44,408 nucleotides of DNA from Oscillospiraceae bacterium (GTDB lineage: Bacteria; Bacillota; Clostridia; Oscillospirales; Ruminococcaceae). Position 1 is the first letter of the stretch. Each line of letters opens with the position of its first letter. A program made the position numbers and the translations under genes. The notes beneath the pieces are model-generated. The model saw only the letters and a list, made by a program, of their open reading frames with translations. It did not search any database and was not told the origin of the DNA. Below are positions 5,364 through 33,237 of this stretch, in pieces. The stretch lies in NCBI GenBank assembly GCA_017547705.1, contig JAFYOZ010000104.1, positions 1 through 44,408 on the forward strand, written 5' to 3'.

Positions 5364-5645
5364 TTATTTACCGTTGTTAGTTTTTTTAGAACCAGCGTGA
5401 CCTCTGAAAGTTCTGGTGGGAGCAAACTCACCGAGTTTGTGACCAACCATATCTTCGGTTACATATACCGGAACATGTTTACGTCCATCGTGAACCGCAA
5501 AGGTGTGTCCTACGAAATCCGGGAAGATCGTGGACGAACGGCTCCAAGTTTTAAGAACTCTTTTTTCGCCAGCTTTGTTCATCTCGCGTACTCTTGCAAG
5601 AAGAACGGGCTGAACAAACGGTCCTTTTTTAATACTTCTGCTCAT
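5364..5645 (-). CDS. rpsS: 30S ribosomal protein S19
   Basis: 93-aa ORF ([11 protein letters not shown]...[17 protein letters not shown]). Confidence 0.97.
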
Positions 5646-5666
5646 TTCGTTTATCCTCCTTCTCGA

Positions 5667-6500
5667 TTATTTCGCGTTGCGGCGTCTTACGATAAATTTA
5701 TCGGAAGCCTTGTGTTTAGCTCTGGTTTTGTAACCAAGAGCAGGTTTGCCCCAAGGGGTTACAGGGCCCGGACGACCGATAGGAGATTTACCTTCACCAC
5801 CACCGTGAGGATGGTCGCAGGGGTTCATTACAGAACCGCGAACGGTAGGTCTCCAACCCATGTGACGCATACGACCTGCTTTACCGTAGGAAACGTTAGC
5901 GTGTTCTACGTTAGAAACCTGGCCGATGGTTGCGTAGCATCCTGCGGGAACGTTACGAAGTTCGCCACTGGGAAGACGGATAAGAGCATATTTGCCTTCT
6001 TTAGCCATGAGCTGTGCCATGGTACCTGCAGAACGAACAAGCTGTGCGCCTTTTCCGGGATAAAGCTCTACGTTGTGGATGAAAGTACCAACGGGGATGT
6101 TTGCAAGAGGAAGAGCGTTGCCTGCGATGATGTCTGCTTCCGGACCGGAAGTAACTTTGTCGCCGGGTCTCATTCCATGAGGAGCAACAATGTATCTCTT
6201 TTCGCCATCTTCATACTGAACAAGAGCGATGTGAGCGGAACGGTTGGGGTCGTACTCAAGAGTGAGAACGTCTGCCATCATTCCGGTTTTGTTACGTTTA
6301 AAGTCGATAATACGATATTTGGTTCTGTTACCGCCGCCACGATGACGAACAGTAATGCGGCCGTAGGAGTTACGACCGGAATGCTTCTTCATCGGTTCGA
6401 GAAGGCTGCGTTCCGGAGCTACCTTGGAAAGTCCAGAGTAATCGATAGTGGACATATCGCGACGACCGGGAGTAGTGGGGTTATAGAACTTAATTGCCAT
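5667..6500 (-). CDS. rplB: 50S ribosomal protein L2
   Basis: 277-aa ORF ([14 protein letters not shown]...[19 protein letters not shown]). Confidence 0.98.
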
Positions 6501-8546: not shown

Positions 8547-8942
8547 TAAAATCGCCTCCTTAATTGATTCCCAATGACACTGCATGGGGTGCGACCTTGT
8601 GAAACACATTCCACGCTCCCGTGTGTTTCATGTCTTCTCATTAAAAAACGGAAATCCCTCGCTTCTATTATTTATATATAATAGACGCAGGTATCTCCGG
8701 ACGCGCGCACCTATAGCTTTTTAAAGCTGCAGTACGCTTTAATAACAAGACCCGTCAAGCGCAGCTCATCACATACGCCGACACACATGGGTGTGCAGTA
8801 TTTCTTGTCGCCCGGTTTAAAATCGGACATACTCTGCGGAAATTACCTGTCACACAGACAGCAACCTCCCGCTTCATCGCATATCGTGCGGACGCCTCAC
8901 AAGTGATATGCTTGCATAGCATCCGCCTTGTTGCAGTCACGC
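8547..8942 (-). promoter_or_regulatory. Long structured 5' leader of the S10 operon (about 395 nt from proximal promoter P2)
   Basis: Distance from the P2 -10 box (8950-8955) to the rpsJ GTG. The stretch is GC-richer than other intergenic DNA. It contains a perfect 9-bp stem TGAAACACA/TGTGTTTCA (8600-8630) and the candidate attenuator listed separately. Confidence 0.5.
8643..8699 (-). terminator. Candidate leader attenuator (hairpin plus T6) about 100 nt upstream of rpsJ
   Basis: On the minus strand, CGGAGAT...ATTTCCG forms an outer stem of 7 bp including one G-U pair. An inner 8-bp stem is TCTATTAT/ATAATAGA. The structure is immediately followed by TTTTTT (8643-8648). Confidence 0.35.
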
Positions 8943-9101: not shown

Positions 9102-9299
9102 GCATAAATTCTCCGTTTTGCCTGTTATTTTCAATAAACCCTCCCCGGTGTTCCAAAGAAATACATAAAAGCAAAAAAGAAACACCCGGCTCTGCGGACG
9201 AATTATTTTACCATGCTAAAACGCTGAAATTTCCGGTTTCCTTTTTATATATATAATAATGTATATATATTATATATAAAGCCTCCCCCCTATTGTAGC

Positions 9300-9514
9300 G
9301 GCGACCCTATGTGGTCGCCACAAAAAAGGAATCCCTGAGGGCTGACTCCCTTGTGCAAAGGGAGCTGTCACCGAAGGTGACTGAGGGATTGTAAAAACGA
9401 ATAATACCCTATTTCTTTAACTGGCAAAAAATCCACCACCTCCTCCGAGGAGGTTTCCACACAGCCGTAGGGAACGGTCTTGACCGTTTCGCTTTGCCTT
9501 CCCTTGGGAGAAGG
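9300..9514. repeat. Array of six short GC-rich stem-loops, REP-like units related to the DUF559 flanks
   Basis: The hairpins are: 9300-9319 GGCGACC/GGTCGCC; 9346-9364 CTCCCTT/AAGGGAG; 9367-9381 GTCACC/GGTGAC, followed by TGAGGGATT; 9438-9454 ACCTCCTC/GAGGAGGT; 9473-9488 AACGGT/ACCGTT; 9497-9514 CCTTCCC/GGAGAAGG (imperfect). AT-only tracts flank the array. Confidence 0.7.
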
Positions 9515-9526
9515 CTTTATATAATA

Positions 9527-9562
9527 GAAAAACCCCGACCGGATGGAGAGTTCCGGTCGGGG
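9527..9562 (-). terminator. Rho-independent terminator of the surface protein gene
   Basis: 11-bp GC-rich stem CCCCGACCGGA/TCCGGTCGGGG with an 8-nt loop, followed on the minus strand by TTTTT. Confidence 0.85.
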
Positions 9563-9605
9563 TGATTTAGGTTAAGTTGAGCTTTTTAACTGATTCAGTC
9601 AAAAA

Positions 9606-10970
9606 TTATTTTTTGAGGGAAACAGCAGCAGCGGTTGCAACAGAAACAACTGCGAGAGCAGCAACTACGCCGAGAACAGATTCAGCACCAGTGTTGGGGT
9701 TCTCTTCGCCTTCAGCAGCTACAGGAGCAGCGATGTCGAGAGTGTACTGACCAAGGGTGGTGTTTTTGCCTTCGATTACGAGAACGAATGCTTCGTTGTA
9801 ATCTTCGGTCATGAAGTCAACGGTGATGGTGTCGATAACTTTGCCGTCTTTGGTGAGGTAGAAGTCAACGATATCGTCTTCTTCAATTTTCTCAAGGAAG
9901 TGCTCACGGAGTTCGAAGTAGGTGAGACCGAGGTCTACAACGATTTCGAAGTCAGAAGCAACAGTCTGTTTGCCATAGAAACCGAATTCGATTTCAGAGG
10001 TAAGAGCGTTGTCGCCGTAGGTGAGGAAGTTTACACCTTTCTGGCCTTTTGCTACGTTTTTGATGGTAACAGCCATGTAGTTGTCAACATCAACAGTGAT
10101 GTTTTTGCCTTCGATTGCACGGAAAGCAGTGGTGGAGATTACTTCTGCATGATCGTAGTTAACTACGAGTTCAGGTTTTACGTAACCGTTGATAGCAGTG
10201 ATGTAGTCGGAGTAACCCTGGCCGTTTACGGAGAGGTATTCGCCGTCTGCATTGTAGAGAGCAGCAGATTTAACAGCTTCGTATTCCCAGATGGATACGT
10301 CGTTGATAACAGTGCCTTCCATAGCAACAGCTTTTCTGCAGTCATCGCAGGTTGCGGTTACTTTGATGGAACCTTCGGTGTAGGAAGCAGAGTAGTTATC
10401 TTCAACAGTGAATTTTACTACGTAAACATCGTTGTCAGCAACAACTTTGTAAACGGTGGTGTTGTAGGTTTTGTTCATCCAGTCTGCAGCTGCAACAGCC
10501 CATGCATAAGACTCGTTTTCGAGGTCAGCAGCGCCGGTGTAGGAAGCCCAGAGAGCAGAATCAGTAACAGTTTTGAGAACTTTGGTACCGTCATATTCTT
10601 TTACAGAATAGGTAACGAGTTTGTCGTTAACGTCGGTGACCATGTAGTCAACCATGGTTTCAGGGTTGTACTCGATGAGTTCAGCTTTAACGTTACCAGA
10701 GGTAACAACTTTAACGTCAGAGAGATCTACGTCGATGTATGCTGCATCGCATTTCATGCAACGGAGTGCAGTGTAGAATACGCCGCCGTGATAGTACTGG
10801 GTAAGGATGGTGTTGCCGTCTGCAGTGTAGTTCCAAGCGTCAACAAAGGTGATCATTTTGGTGCCCTGGGTTTTTACTTCTTCGAGAAGGATGAGAGTGC
10901 CTGCGAAAGCAGATACTGCCATGCTAAGAGCAAGAACAAGAGCAAGAACAAGAGCAAGAGCTTTTTTCAT
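9606..10970 (-). CDS. Orphan secreted surface protein with NPNTG sortase-type C-terminal sorting signal
   Basis: Start set at ATG 10968-10970, 8 nt after AGGAGG. Signal peptide is MKKALALVLALVLALSMAVSAFA. The C-terminus has NPNTG (9687-9701), a hydrophobic stretch and KK. Codon usage resembles the r-protein genes. It has a strong promoter and terminator. I recognised no family. Confidence 0.8.
   Translation of the reverse strand: MKKALALVLALVLALSMAVSAFAGTLILLEEVKTQGTKMITFVDAWNYTADGNTILTQYYHGGVFYTALRCMKCDAAYIDVDLSDVKVVTSGNVKAELIEYNPETMVDYMVTDVNDKLVTYSVKEYDGTKVLKTVTDSALWASYTGAADLENESYAWAVAAADWMNKTYNTTVYKVVADNDVYVVKFTVEDNYSASYTEGSIKVTATCDDCRKAVAMEGTVINDVSIWEYEAVKSAALYNADGEYLSVNGQGYSDYITAINGYVKPELVVNYDHAEVISTTAFRAIEGKNITVDVDNYMAVTIKNVAKGQKGVNFLTYGDNALTSEIEFGFYGKQTVASDFEIVVDLGLTYFELREHFLEKIEEDDIVDFYLTKDGKVIDTITVDFMTEDYNEAFVLVIEGKNTTLGQYTLDIAAPVAAEGEENPNTGAESVLGVVAALAVVSVATAAAVSLKK
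10926..10961. repeat. 12-nt tandem repeat (about 3 copies) inside the signal-peptide coding region
   Basis: AAGAGCAAGAAC occurs twice perfectly, and a third copy has one mismatch. It encodes the (LALV)n core of the signal peptide. Confidence 0.8.
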
Positions 10971-11144
10971 GTTTAGTTTCCTCCTAAAATATTTTTTTGA
11001 GCAATTATCAGAAAAGTTCGTCTCTCCAAATCGAACTGTTCTAATCGTTAACGGTGATAAATGCCCCGGGATCATCGACCCCGTTGGAGAGTTATTTTTC
11101 GGTTACAAACCTTTTAACCAATTTGTAACATTTATCACGTCCAT

Positions 11145-11173
11145 AATATACCACACCAAAAAAACTTTGTCAA
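11145..11173 (-). promoter_or_regulatory. Sigma-A promoter of the surface protein gene (extended -10)
   Basis: Minus strand reads TTGACA (11168-11173), a 17-nt spacer, then TGgTATATT (-10 at 11145-11150). This implies a 5' UTR of about 165 nt. Confidence 0.6.
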
Positions 11174-11237
11174 CAGTTTTTTTACAAAATTATTTAAATT
11201 TAATTACAAAAGTTACATTTTTGTAACTTTTCCTCTT

Positions 11238-11292
11238 AACCTCCCTTGTCAAAGGGAGGTGGATTCGCCGCAAGGCGAAGACGGAGGGATTC
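11238..11292. repeat. Left inverted composite unit
   Basis: AACCTCCCTTGTCAAAGGGAGG, then hairpin TTCGCC-GCAA-GGCGAA, then GGAGGGATTC. Confidence 0.75.
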
Positions 11293-11656
11293 TTTCCTCT
11301 TGAATCCTTCTTCTCACCTCTTTATCTATAAATCTGCAAATCCCCTCAAAATTCTCTTTTATTTGATTATTCGGAATCCGTAAAACTTCAATACCTCTTT
11401 TTTCTATAAATCCGGTTCTTATTGTGTCGTATTCTCTTCCCTCTGCACTGTAATGCTGTGAACCGTCTAATTCAATAACCAATTTTGCCTTCGAGCAATA
11501 AAAATCCGCGATATAATTATCTATTATTTTTTGACGCAAAAATCTTACGGGGTAATCTTTTAGAAACTGATACCAGAGAATTTTTTCTTCGGCCGTCATA
11601 TTTTTTCTTAATTCTCTCGCTCTTTCTGTAAGATTTGAATTATGTTTATAATTCAC
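11249..11656 (-). CDS. DUF559 domain protein (Vsr/restriction-endonuclease-like fold)
   Basis: 135-aa ORF with a GTG start at 11654-11656. The pattern is typical of DUF559: ...AEEKILWYQFLKDYPVRFLRQKIIDNYIADFYCSKAKLVIELDGSQH...EVLRIPNNQI. The C-terminal tail IPPSSPCGESTSL is encoded by the repeat. Confidence 0.8.
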   Translation of the reverse strand: MNYKHNSNLTERARELRKNMTAEEKILWYQFLKDYPVRFLRQKIIDNYIADFYCSKAKLVIELDGSQHYSAEGREYDTIRTGFIEKRGIEVLRIPNNQIKENFEGICRFIDKEVRRRIQEERIPPSSPCGESTSL

Positions 11657-11660
11657 AAAT

Positions 11661-11708
11661 GAATCCCTCCACCGCTTCGCGGTCCCCCTCCCTTTAACAA
11701 TGGAGGTT
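11661..11708. repeat. Right inverted composite unit
   Basis: Plus strand reads GAATCCCTCC, then hairpin ACCGC-TTC-GCGGT, then CCCCCTCCCTTTAACAATGGAGGTT. Its reverse complement matches the left unit: outer module 23/26 and inner 10-mer 10/10 by hand alignment. Confidence 0.75.
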
Positions 11709-11710
11709 TT

Positions 11711-11953
11711 TTATTCCACAACAATATAGTTCTGTGCGGCGTCTTCTTTTCTTACGGATTCAACAATGGAAACAACTTTAACTTTAAGAGGTCTCTGTCC
11801 AAGCTGGATTTCGATAATATCGTCCTCTTTAACCTCATACGAGGCTCTTGCGGCTTTTCCGTTAACAAAAACCCTGCCTGCGTCGCAAGCTTCGTTTGCA
11901 ATGGTGCGGCGTTTAATAAGTCTTGTAACCTTTAAATATTTATCAAGGCGCAT
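11711..11953 (-). CDS. rqcP: S4-domain RNA-binding protein RqcP/YabO (ribosome quality control)
   Basis: 80-aa ORF (MRLDKYLKVTRLIKRRTIANEACDAGRVFVNGK...) closely resembles B. subtilis YabO. Synteny with mazG and the MOP flippase matches. Confidence 0.88.
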   Translation of the reverse strand: MRLDKYLKVTRLIKRRTIANEACDAGRVFVNGKAARASYEVKEDDIIEIQLGQRPLKVKVVSIVESVRKEDAAQNYIVVE

Positions 11954-33176: not shown

Positions 33177-33230
33177 GAATCCCCTCGCCAAATCTTACGA
33201 TATTTGGCCCTTTCCCCTTTAGACAAGGGG
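33177..33230. repeat. Solo copy of the composite hairpin unit (right-unit orientation)
   Basis: GAATCCCCTC, then hairpin GCCAAAT-CTTACG-ATTTGGC, then CCTTTCCCCTTT-AGACA-AGGGG. The architecture matches 11661-11708. Confidence 0.6.
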
Positions 33231-33237
33231 CGCAATT

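Follow-up and report, generated by a model that had tools for sequence, protein, structure and literature searches.

A DUF559 nuclease gene between inverted triplex-type repeats in an Oscillospiraceae genome: a candidate nuclease-repeat partnership with REPIN/RAYT-like organisation

The DNA considered here, referred to as the window, is the 44,408-nucleotide stretch of contig JAFYOZ010000104.1 (assembly GCA_017547705.1) from an Oscillospiraceae bacterium. On its minus strand lies an open reading frame (ORF) for a DUF559 endonuclease with Vsr-type PD-(D/E)XK fold (11249-11656, GTG start, 135 aa), which is enclosed by two inverted copies of a composite, hairpin-forming repeat, hereafter the unit. 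This arrangement had been described in a first-pass annotation, and its coordinates hold. The outer arms of the inverted repeat (11238-11263 and 11683-11708) span 26 nt at 88% identity (23/26) and the inner arms (11283-11295 and 11658-11670) 13 nt at 92%, including a 10-mer, GGAGGGATTC on one side and GAATCCCTCC on the other, that is exact (10/10). The Pfam DUF559 profile (PF04480) matches residues 8-114 of the ORF (E 6.5e-30, 103.7 bits versus a cut-off of 20.6) and is covered from position 2 to 108 of 109, which amounts to a full-length domain. DUF559 and restriction-endonuclease-like families were the only ones matched by the protein, and its Pfam and NCBIfam relatives are YcjD-like. Solved relatives are a Neisseria protein (3HRL, E 2e-15) and the catalytic domain of I-Bth0305I (3R3P), and the homing-endonuclease families of phages in PHROG are further relatives of the catalytic domain. 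The putatively catalytic acidic and His residues D51, E62, D64 and H68 are invariant in an alignment of 27 homologues and align to 3HRL and 3R3P. According to tblastn, the window holds a single DUF559 copy.

The unit upstream of the gene start occupies 11661-11707 (plus strand in the 10-mer-first orientation of our covariance model, the gene being on the minus strand; 44.2 bits, E 6e-9). It is composed of the 10-mer GAATCCCTCC (11661-11670), the mini-hairpin ACCGC-TTC-GCGGT (11671-11683) and the outer hairpin CCTCCCTT-TAAC-AATGGAGG (11687-11706), which has one stem mismatch at 11701; in a near-identical strain (L082) this stem is perfect, CCTCCCTT..AAGGGAGG. The downstream unit (11239-11292, minus strand, 49.9 bits, E 3e-10) contains, as read on the plus strand, the outer hairpin CCTCCCTT-GTCA-AAGGGAGG (11240-11259), the mini-hairpin TTCGCC-GCAA-GGCGAA (11264-11279) and, within GGAGGGATTC (11283-11292), a terminal 8-mer that mirrors one arm of the outer hairpin. 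A strict triplex-motif finder matched this unit at 11240-11289, and the combination CCTCCCTT-N3-8-AAGGGAGG was found once in the window, with 0 expected from 100 shuffles. Folded as single-stranded DNA, both flanking units form two hairpins, the outer one and a smaller, G+C-rich one, in agreement with the earlier observation that the middle hairpin differs in sequence and keeps its structure. The left unit has fold z-scores of -4.7/-4.8; those of the right unit, with its stem mismatch, are -2.8/-3.5. The terminal 10-mer stays unpaired in these folds; ViennaRNA considers Watson-Crick pairs only, and it is under that limit that the 8-mer is left unpaired.

The repeat is built into the gene at both ends. 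Read along the gene strand, the upstream unit has GGAGGGATTC as its last part, 4 nt short of the GTG, and the GGAGG within this part (the complement of 11661-11670), located 9 nt before the GTG, is the Shine-Dalgarno (SD) sequence, as had been annotated. The downstream unit opens with GAATCCCTCC on this strand, and the TGA stop (11249-11251) does lie in the loop of its outer hairpin. Codons 123-135, encoding the tail IPPSSPCGESTSL, and the stop consist of downstream-unit sequence; the tail was correctly recognised as repeat in the first pass, with 13 codons counted here in place of about 14. The closest relatives stop at a TGA that overlaps the 10-mer (aaTGAATCCC), and because the window reads AGAATCCC at this place, the 13-residue tail is translated repeat that followed the loss of the stop. 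Similar tails are found in many homologues in another reading frame (for example ..ESLRQPSADTSL). The C-terminal tails are by-products of the overlap between gene and repeat and not a feature of the protein. The ORF has a GC content of 32.7% (28% at third codon positions) and its neighbours 41-45%, so it is as A/T-rich and as unlike them as had been noted. Neither flanking unit was called terminator-like in the window, and ordinary terminators are rejected there as an explanation of the flanks. On the gene strand the 3' hairpin of the window is followed by TTAAGAGGAAAAG; at other loci a T-run follows. Profile searches found no transposase of known class between the terminal inverted repeats.

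In order to describe the unit, sequences from related loci were aligned, which separates it into an outer hairpin of one pyrimidine-rich (Y) and one purine-rich (R) arm, a variable mini-hairpin and the terminal 8-mer. Pairing in the outer stem reaches 97.6%, 4 of its pairs show compensatory changes, and the mini-hairpin has both-side changes at all 7 pairs, with 85 distinct stems among 166 hairpins. Read on the purine strand, 86 of these 166 hairpins carry a C-GNA-G loop and 23 a GNNA loop. Reportedly, Hirao and co-workers recognised C-GNA-G triloops as the hallmark of DNA mini-hairpins with unusual stability. Read in reverse (and not as the reverse complement), the purine arm of the outer hairpin gives the terminal 8-mer, which is thus its mirror, and the two covary: AAGGGAGG goes with GGAGGGAT, AAGGGGGG with GGGGGGAT, AAGGAGGG with GGGAGGAT, AGGGGAGG with GGAGGGGT and AAGGGGAG with GAGGGGAT. 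A table of arm type against 8-mer type is almost purely diagonal (133/1, 33/3, 27/1 and 7/4). Aligned in parallel as a third strand, the columns are 93.5-100% compatible over 6 consecutive positions, and slid controls are lower; double changes occur at 3 of the 6 positions, in 9, 2 and 19 sequences.

The order Y-arm, loop, R-arm, connector and mirror R-arm corresponds to the geometry of a purine-motif triplex (G.G-C, A.A-T, T.A-T). An intramolecular triplex predicts the mirror relation, whereas a protein reading the duplex or copying by a polymerase does not. Purine-motif triplexes have been reported not to form in RNA (PMC4666352), and for this reason, together with the mirror covariation and the GNA loops, we interpret the unit as a DNA-level structure that the purine-rich strand would form, with a triplex fold that is suggested by the covariation. 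Watson-Crick pairing of the 8-mer with the arm was rejected, since some subtypes would allow 5 bp at most and the AG subtype no pairs at all, which leaves the covariation unexplained. RNA-level UUCG or GNRA tetraloops were likewise dismissed, as the loops are in triloop register and are GNA or GNNA on the purine strand, not GNRA. The mirror relation within the unit and the stop-loss origin of the tail are additions to what the first-pass annotation contained.

The unit is not restricted to the flanks of the nuclease gene. A search of the window with the covariance model, built from 62 distinct related units and run with filters off, returned four units, the two flanking ones and two solo copies. 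One solo unit, of the AG subtype (CAATCCCTCAG...AGCTCCCTT-loop-AAGGGAG), lies at 9344-9391 on the minus strand (60.4 bits, E 1e-12), between a surface-protein gene and the leader of the S10 operon; its fold z-scores are -4.1/-4.4 and the strict triplex finder matched it at 9346-9388. An extra GGAATCCCTGAGGG at 9328-9341 could close a stem around it. The other solo unit is also intergenic (33177-33231, plus strand, 26.1 bits, E 1e-4, fold z about -3) and is of the CCCCTC subtype (GAATCCCCTC, a GCCAAAT..ATTTGGC hairpin and CCCCTT-TAGAC-AAGGGG), which also flanks DUF559 genes in four related loci (L052, L064, L091 and L094). Of the three solo copies claimed earlier, these two stand; the third, at 9473-9514, consists of two unrelated hairpins without the terminal 10-mer and gave no model match even at E 10 with filters off. 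Several hairpins near the first solo unit (9296-9322 and 9430-9520), namely GGCGACC-ctatgt-GGTCGCC, CCTCCTC-cga-GGAGG, GAACGGTC..GACCGTT and GCCTTC..GAAGGC, had no match to the unit model and could be degenerate relics or unrelated. At gathering level, Rfam 15 matched nothing in the window, the units included, except the S10-Clostridia ribosomal protein leader (RF03136, 56.4 bits) at 8805-8885 on the minus strand, upstream of rpsJ; a permissive Rfam 15 search of 9200-11800 gave no score above 20 bits, compared with gathering scores of 40-100.

The cassette of gene and paired units recurs in related bacteria. One genome per species was scanned, which yielded 80 loci, all in metagenome-assembled genomes of Clostridia and together comprising 574 kb, whose homologues have 51-68% identity; flanks were counted with a sequence-only hidden Markov model and total units with the covariance model. 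The cassette is present in most of these loci, with a 5' unit in 56/80, a 3' unit in 65/80 and both in 52/80, so other DUF559 genes are flanked in the way the first pass had anticipated. The 5' unit ends 1-7 nt ahead of the start codon in 42 of the 56 loci, and the ORF extends into the 3' unit in 48 of the 65. In total, the related loci contain 275 units; near the sampled genes they occur at about one per 2-6 kb, the background of non-flanking units being about one per 6 kb. Among 94 non-flanking units found with the sequence-only model, 19 head-to-head doublets with spacers of 12-45 nt were counted versus 5 tail-to-tail pairs. Some loci carry arrays of up to 15 units; in L026 (3645-5263) and L014, about 15 units of alternating orientation extend over 1.7 kb around a DUF559 gene that is without a canonical 5' unit. 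At least two cassettes at different loci were found in several genomes (L012/L045, L009/L048, L031/L076 and two in L016).

The gene order on the window's minus strand is MurJ/SpoVB-like, MazG, HU, RqcP (an S4-domain protein, 11711-11953) and then the DUF559 ORF. Ahead of rqcP lies a promoter-like site (12014-11987), none of the sites called terminator-like in the window falls between rqcP and the DUF559 ORF, and the two genes are probably co-transcribed. Directly outside the cassette lies a conserved A+T hairpin, AAAAGTTACA-n4-TGTAACTTTT (11208-11231), followed by a near-consensus promoter for the next gene (TTGACA-17-TATATT with TG, 11173-11145, minus strand); both are kept in L092, L093 and L094 and therefore mark the cassette boundary. 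A Vsr/Dcm repair pair was rejected, as there is no methyltransferase among the neighbours RqcP, HU, MazG and MurJ, and for a defence-system reading PADLOC gave weak, domain-level matches only.

The three closest homologues on long contigs (75-78% identity) occupy the same site, after rqcP and before the same promoter region, which indicates that the cassette is old and vertically inherited here. The units around it vary in subtype and number between relatives at the rqcP locus; in L093, for example, four extra units lie between rqcP and the DUF559 gene. In L091 a gene-less doublet is found between the HU terminator and the ribosome-binding site of rqcP, where the window, L094, L093 and L085 have none. 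Both of its mini-hairpins match those of the strain's own DUF559 cassette 320 nt downstream, and gene-end remnants are kept in its spacer, which identifies it, as far as sequence comparison can tell, as an internally deleted copy of the local cassette at a new site. A doublet in L011 similarly retains the cassette 5' unit and the ATG. At 5 loci the outer hairpin of the 3' unit harbours a nested unit of another subtype, which 2 orthologous loci lack. In L054 (590-900) and L070 there is an insertion of about 300 nt, made up of a doublet and other sequence and bounded by repeated AAGCACTG, which is absent from the orthologous L057, L065, L069 and L076 and may be a larger composite element.

The expectation that the locus varies among relatives is borne out for the number of units; absence of the whole cassette downstream of rqcP, for which L084, L085, L088 and L089 were candidates, cannot be claimed. 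In these four the RqcP protein is identical to that of the window, the rqcP DNA is 92% identical and a different sequence follows rqcP, and their contigs end 36-118 nt past rqcP, in L085 inside another unit-like sequence. Independent metagenome contigs break in or just after a unit by rqcP or DUF559 in L083, L084, L085 and L088-L091, so the repeat fragments assemblies of these genomes; contig ends inside a unit are common, as a repeat would lead one to expect. In L087 (1040-1557) the sequence is 99-100% identical to the window through rqcP and about 65 DUF559 codons. Beyond this point identity falls to about 65-70%, another unit subtype stands at the end, and gyrB follows. This is either conversion or recombination between two cassettes or an assembly chimera, and it implies that this or a close genome holds a second cassette, upstream of gyrB.

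The association of DUF559 genes with triplex-type motifs extends well beyond Clostridia. A tblastn search of plasmid and chromid records gave 15 DUF559 loci (L096-L110) from Alpha-, Beta- and Gammaproteobacteria, Deinococcus and Cyanobacteria, with the genera Sinorhizobium, Azospirillum, Neisseria, Deinococcus (three loci), Sphingomonas, Sphingobium, Novosphingobium, Photobacterium, Synechocystis, Picosynechococcus and Pseudanabaena. The motifs that bracket these genes are G/C-rich, in the order Y-loop-R-loop-mirror R. Strict triplex-type motifs were found at the gene ends in 11/15 loci, compared with 0.00-0.01 in shuffles, and relaxed criteria added 3 further loci (14/15). In 50-kb control regions, both motifs of Deinococcus (2/2) flank the DUF559 gene, inverted and at 5 and 18 nt, with the orientation relative to the gene reversed versus Clostridia; 3/6 motifs in Sinorhizobium lie at most 115 nt and 6/10 in Pseudanabaena at most 155 nt from DUF559. 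The units of Sphingobium and Novosphingobium have the same composite build as the Clostridial unit, down to its linkers (GGGGAGG-TGGCA..stem..TGAC-GGAGGGG), and are detected by the Clostridial covariance model at up to 28.4 bits, E 2e-5 (Novosphingobium). In Azospirillum, a TTA-loop form and a mini-hairpin form are adjacent, beside the DUF559 gene. N- and C-terminal extensions of annotated DUF559 proteins are translated repeat here as well, as in Sphingomonas (..PSPSPSRLREGGL).

In Escherichia coli a DUF559 gene is ycjD (5408-5761 on the minus strand of L095, which is NC_000913.3, 1351000-1351900), located between sapF and fabI in phylogroups A, B1 and C (PMC12817139) and present in 3377/5426 complete genomes. 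The gene ends in the Y-loop-R hairpin CCCTCTCCC-TGAAAGA-GCGAGGGGG, with the TGA in the loop, and is followed by a duplicated fragment of its own 3' end and, 170 nt downstream, by a canonical BoxC/TMECO repeat. TMECO has the consensus CCCTCNCCC N3-6 GGGNGAGGG N3 GGGNGAGGG and 23 copies in MG1655, always intergenic and including five inverted pairs (PMC4666352). In vitro, TMECO DNA folds into a purine-motif triplex (Holder et al. 2015, PMC4666352), and no associated gene or mobile element has been reported for it (PMC4666352). With 23 copies in 4.6 Mb, the chance that a TMECO lies within 200 nt is about 0.002. TMECO-like places were counted by blastn with a composite query in a spread sample of 59 complete genomes; the median was 17 in the 37 genomes with ycjD versus 3 in the 22 without, the latter including B2-like genomes with 1-4 and O157-like genomes with about 12 places. 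The published TMECO counts of 23 and 29 versus 1 (PMC4666352) agree with this difference.

We posit that the window locus is the resident cassette of a nuclease-repeat partnership organised like REPIN/RAYT, with its cognate repeat pair placed head-to-head, and we give this proposal an even chance. In the mechanism we envisage, the purine-rich strand, when single-stranded or extruded, would fold into the Y/R hairpin and the compact C-GNA-G mini-hairpin, and the terminal purine 8-mer would fold back onto the hairpin, serving there as third strand in a triplex of the purine motif. The DUF559 nuclease would recognise the folded unit and nick beside the fold, after which host repair or recombination would copy, delete or convert units. 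Spread would have to use these host processes, because the nuclease cannot transpose alone, no target duplications are seen and the gene is stable. The outcome would be solo units, gene-less doublets and nested units scattered in intergenic DNA as non-autonomous derivatives, while the gene itself would mostly be inherited vertically at fixed loci.

REP and REPIN elements with their RAYT genes, together called REPtrons, were reportedly described by Nunvar in 2010, Bertels and Rainey in 2011 and Ton-Hoang in 2012. The two systems are alike in that a nuclease gene lies between inverted copies of a short structured repeat, that further copies of this repeat are scattered through intergenic DNA, both as singlets and as head-to-head doublets, and that the gene is usually vertical at a fixed locus, with repeat subtypes following gene lineages. 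They differ in the enzyme, here a Vsr-fold PD-(D/E)XK hydrolase in place of the HUH/Y1 transposase RAYT; since DUF559 is a hydrolase, no covalent DNA intermediate is expected. They also differ in the repeat, here a hairpin, mini-hairpin and mirror segment in place of a simple palindrome with a 5' guide tetranucleotide, in the overlap of the ORF with the repeat at both ends (SD and stop codon), and in the possibility of several paralogous cassettes per genome. The REPtron-like organisation suggested in the first-pass annotation is hence supported by the doublets and by vertical inheritance at a fixed locus, as a resemblance in organisation; membership of REP/RAYT itself is precluded by the different enzyme class.

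With BoxC/PIT/TMECO the unit shares the order of Y-arm, loop, R-arm, loop and mirror R-arm, a G/C-rich composition and a dispersed, intergenic and often inverted-pair distribution. Unlike TMECO, whose second loop has 3 nt and whose arms have 9 nt, it has a C-GNA-G mini-hairpin of 13-25 nt as second loop and arms of 7-8 nt (CCTCCCTT/AAGGGAGG), and its host is a low-GC Clostridium-class bacterium. The window unit is thus a related architecture and not, in sequence, the same family. We further put forward, tentatively and at somewhat below even probability, that DUF559 proteins of the YcjD type are the cognate enzymes of BoxC/PIT/TMECO triplex repeats throughout Bacteria, an ancient partnership in which they drive the birth, spread and turnover of the repeats. 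Insertion sequence (IS) elements with miniature inverted-repeat derivatives (MITEs), such as Correia and IS200/IS605, are comparable in having terminal inverted repeats around a gene and internally deleted, gene-less derivatives; here, unlike there, a transposase of known class is lacking, target-site duplications were not seen and the gene copy is syntenic between species. The Vsr repair endonuclease has the same fold, and the window gene belongs to a different subfamily (DUF559) and has no adjacent cytosine methyltransferase.

Several points weigh against the proposed partnership. We know of no autonomous route by which a hydrolytic PD-(D/E)XK nuclease of 120 aa could transpose DNA. The gene has not been recently mobile, given that the cassette is syntenic in related species, and three filled/empty comparisons (L091 doublet, nested units, L054 insertion) showed neither a target-site duplication nor a clean junction. 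In 15-25% of Clostridial loci one unit went undetected, a single cassette can combine units that differ in subtype (L091 and the second cassette of L016), and the two solo units of the window belong to subtypes other than that of its own cassette. The correlation seen between protein and unit subtype is expected from linkage alone. The covariation from which the triplex fold is predicted comprises few independent events, in about five subtypes. The E. coli correlation is confounded by phylogeny, and O157-type genomes carry about 12 copies even without ycjD.

That an unrelated small ORF lies only by chance beside ordinary terminators, or beside copies of an intergenic repeat that is abundant, might be considered because units are so frequent near the sampled loci. 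This is contradicted by the counts, as inverted units stand at both ends and at nucleotide-precise distances in most of the 80 loci, 14/15 loci of other phyla are alike where about 0 would be expected, and the only two motifs in 50 kb of Deinococcus DNA flank the gene. A functional alternative is that the units are purely cis-acting modules, sequestering the SD upstream and providing a 3'-end hairpin downstream, which are reused at many genes and have no enzymatic tie to DUF559. The 5' unit does supply the SD at a fixed distance, many loci have a T-run after and an A-run before the 3' outer hairpin, and the units are intergenic. We nevertheless regard this as very improbable, given that neither flanking unit of the window was called terminator-like, that the association is specific to DUF559 genes across phyla despite differing repeat sequences, that the mirror covariation and GNA loops point to the purine DNA strand, and that gene-less doublets and the long arrays exist.

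Another alternative is a selfish gene of the homing type. Here the repeat would spread or persist by some host-driven process, and DUF559, as a free-standing homing endonuclease, would cut empty doublets between the 10-mers and copy its own gene in, through repair from a filled copy with the units of about 50 bp as homology arms, parasitising the repeat rather than propagating it. The fold is common to I-Bth0305I (3R3P) and phage homing endonucleases, and in comparison with the I-Bth0305I-type Vsr-like (EDxHD) enzymes and the PHROG families, the related catalytic domain makes a selfish lifestyle plausible. The gene always sits exactly between two inward-facing 10-mers, empty doublets with spacers of 12-45 nt exist, genomes can hold multiple cassettes, the ORF is low in GC, and the identity switch within the L087 gene is what conversion between cassettes would produce, unless that contig is a chimera. 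Unlike homing endonucleases, however, the window protein is a bare domain of about 120 aa with no intron, intein or extra DNA-binding domain, and its gene lies inside a repeat pair and not in a conserved host gene. The doublets examined look like deletion derivatives of cassettes, with ATG or gene-end nucleotides kept, rather than naive empty sites; synteny of the cassette extends across species about 25% apart in protein sequence; and the tracking of ycjD by unit copy number in E. coli is left unexplained. Homing is in our opinion unlikely, if worth serious consideration. Vsr relatives act as repair nickases, which would fit a housekeeping role. In this reading the repeats would be hazardous or useful non-B DNA (triplexes or hairpins that block replication), DUF559 would remove or nick them for fork restart or repair, and they would titrate or regulate the gene by copy-number-sensing autoregulation. 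Such a role would suit a vertical, single-copy gene at a fixed locus in the operon MurJ-MazG-HU-RqcP-DUF559, folding or protein binding at the SD within the third-strand segment would affect translation, and TMECO loci have been associated with genomic instability (PMC4666352). It does not account for cassette-derived doublets and nested units, lineages with the gene have more repeats and not fewer (E. coli), and low GC and paralogous cassettes would be untypical, so that we judge it to be distinctly unlikely.

DUF559 is among the most widespread bacterial domains of unknown function, and for repeats of the BoxC/PIT/TMECO type we know of no function or origin proposed since the 1990s. A full-text literature search, some combined queries of which were incomplete, found no paper tying DUF559 or ycjD to repeats; it is this link to triplex-type repeats that our analysis adds. 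The cross-phylum association yields a testable partner for each side, a candidate substrate for the enzyme and a candidate enzyme for the repeat. It also explains the odd C-terminal tails, as translated repeat, in thousands of annotated DUF559 proteins, and the contig breaks in gut-Clostridia metagenome assemblies. If the proposed nuclease-repeat partnership is true, a resident nuclease gene embedded in a dispersed repeat of its own would be known for a second time, REP/RAYT being the first, and DUF559 would be the first nuclease family tied to intramolecular triplex DNA in vivo. On the wider, more tentative proposal for all Bacteria, the system would be mechanistically different from REP/RAYT, with a Vsr-fold nickase recognising triplex-plus-hairpin DNA, and the Clostridial cassette and E. 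coli ycjD with TMECO would be two faces of one partnership.

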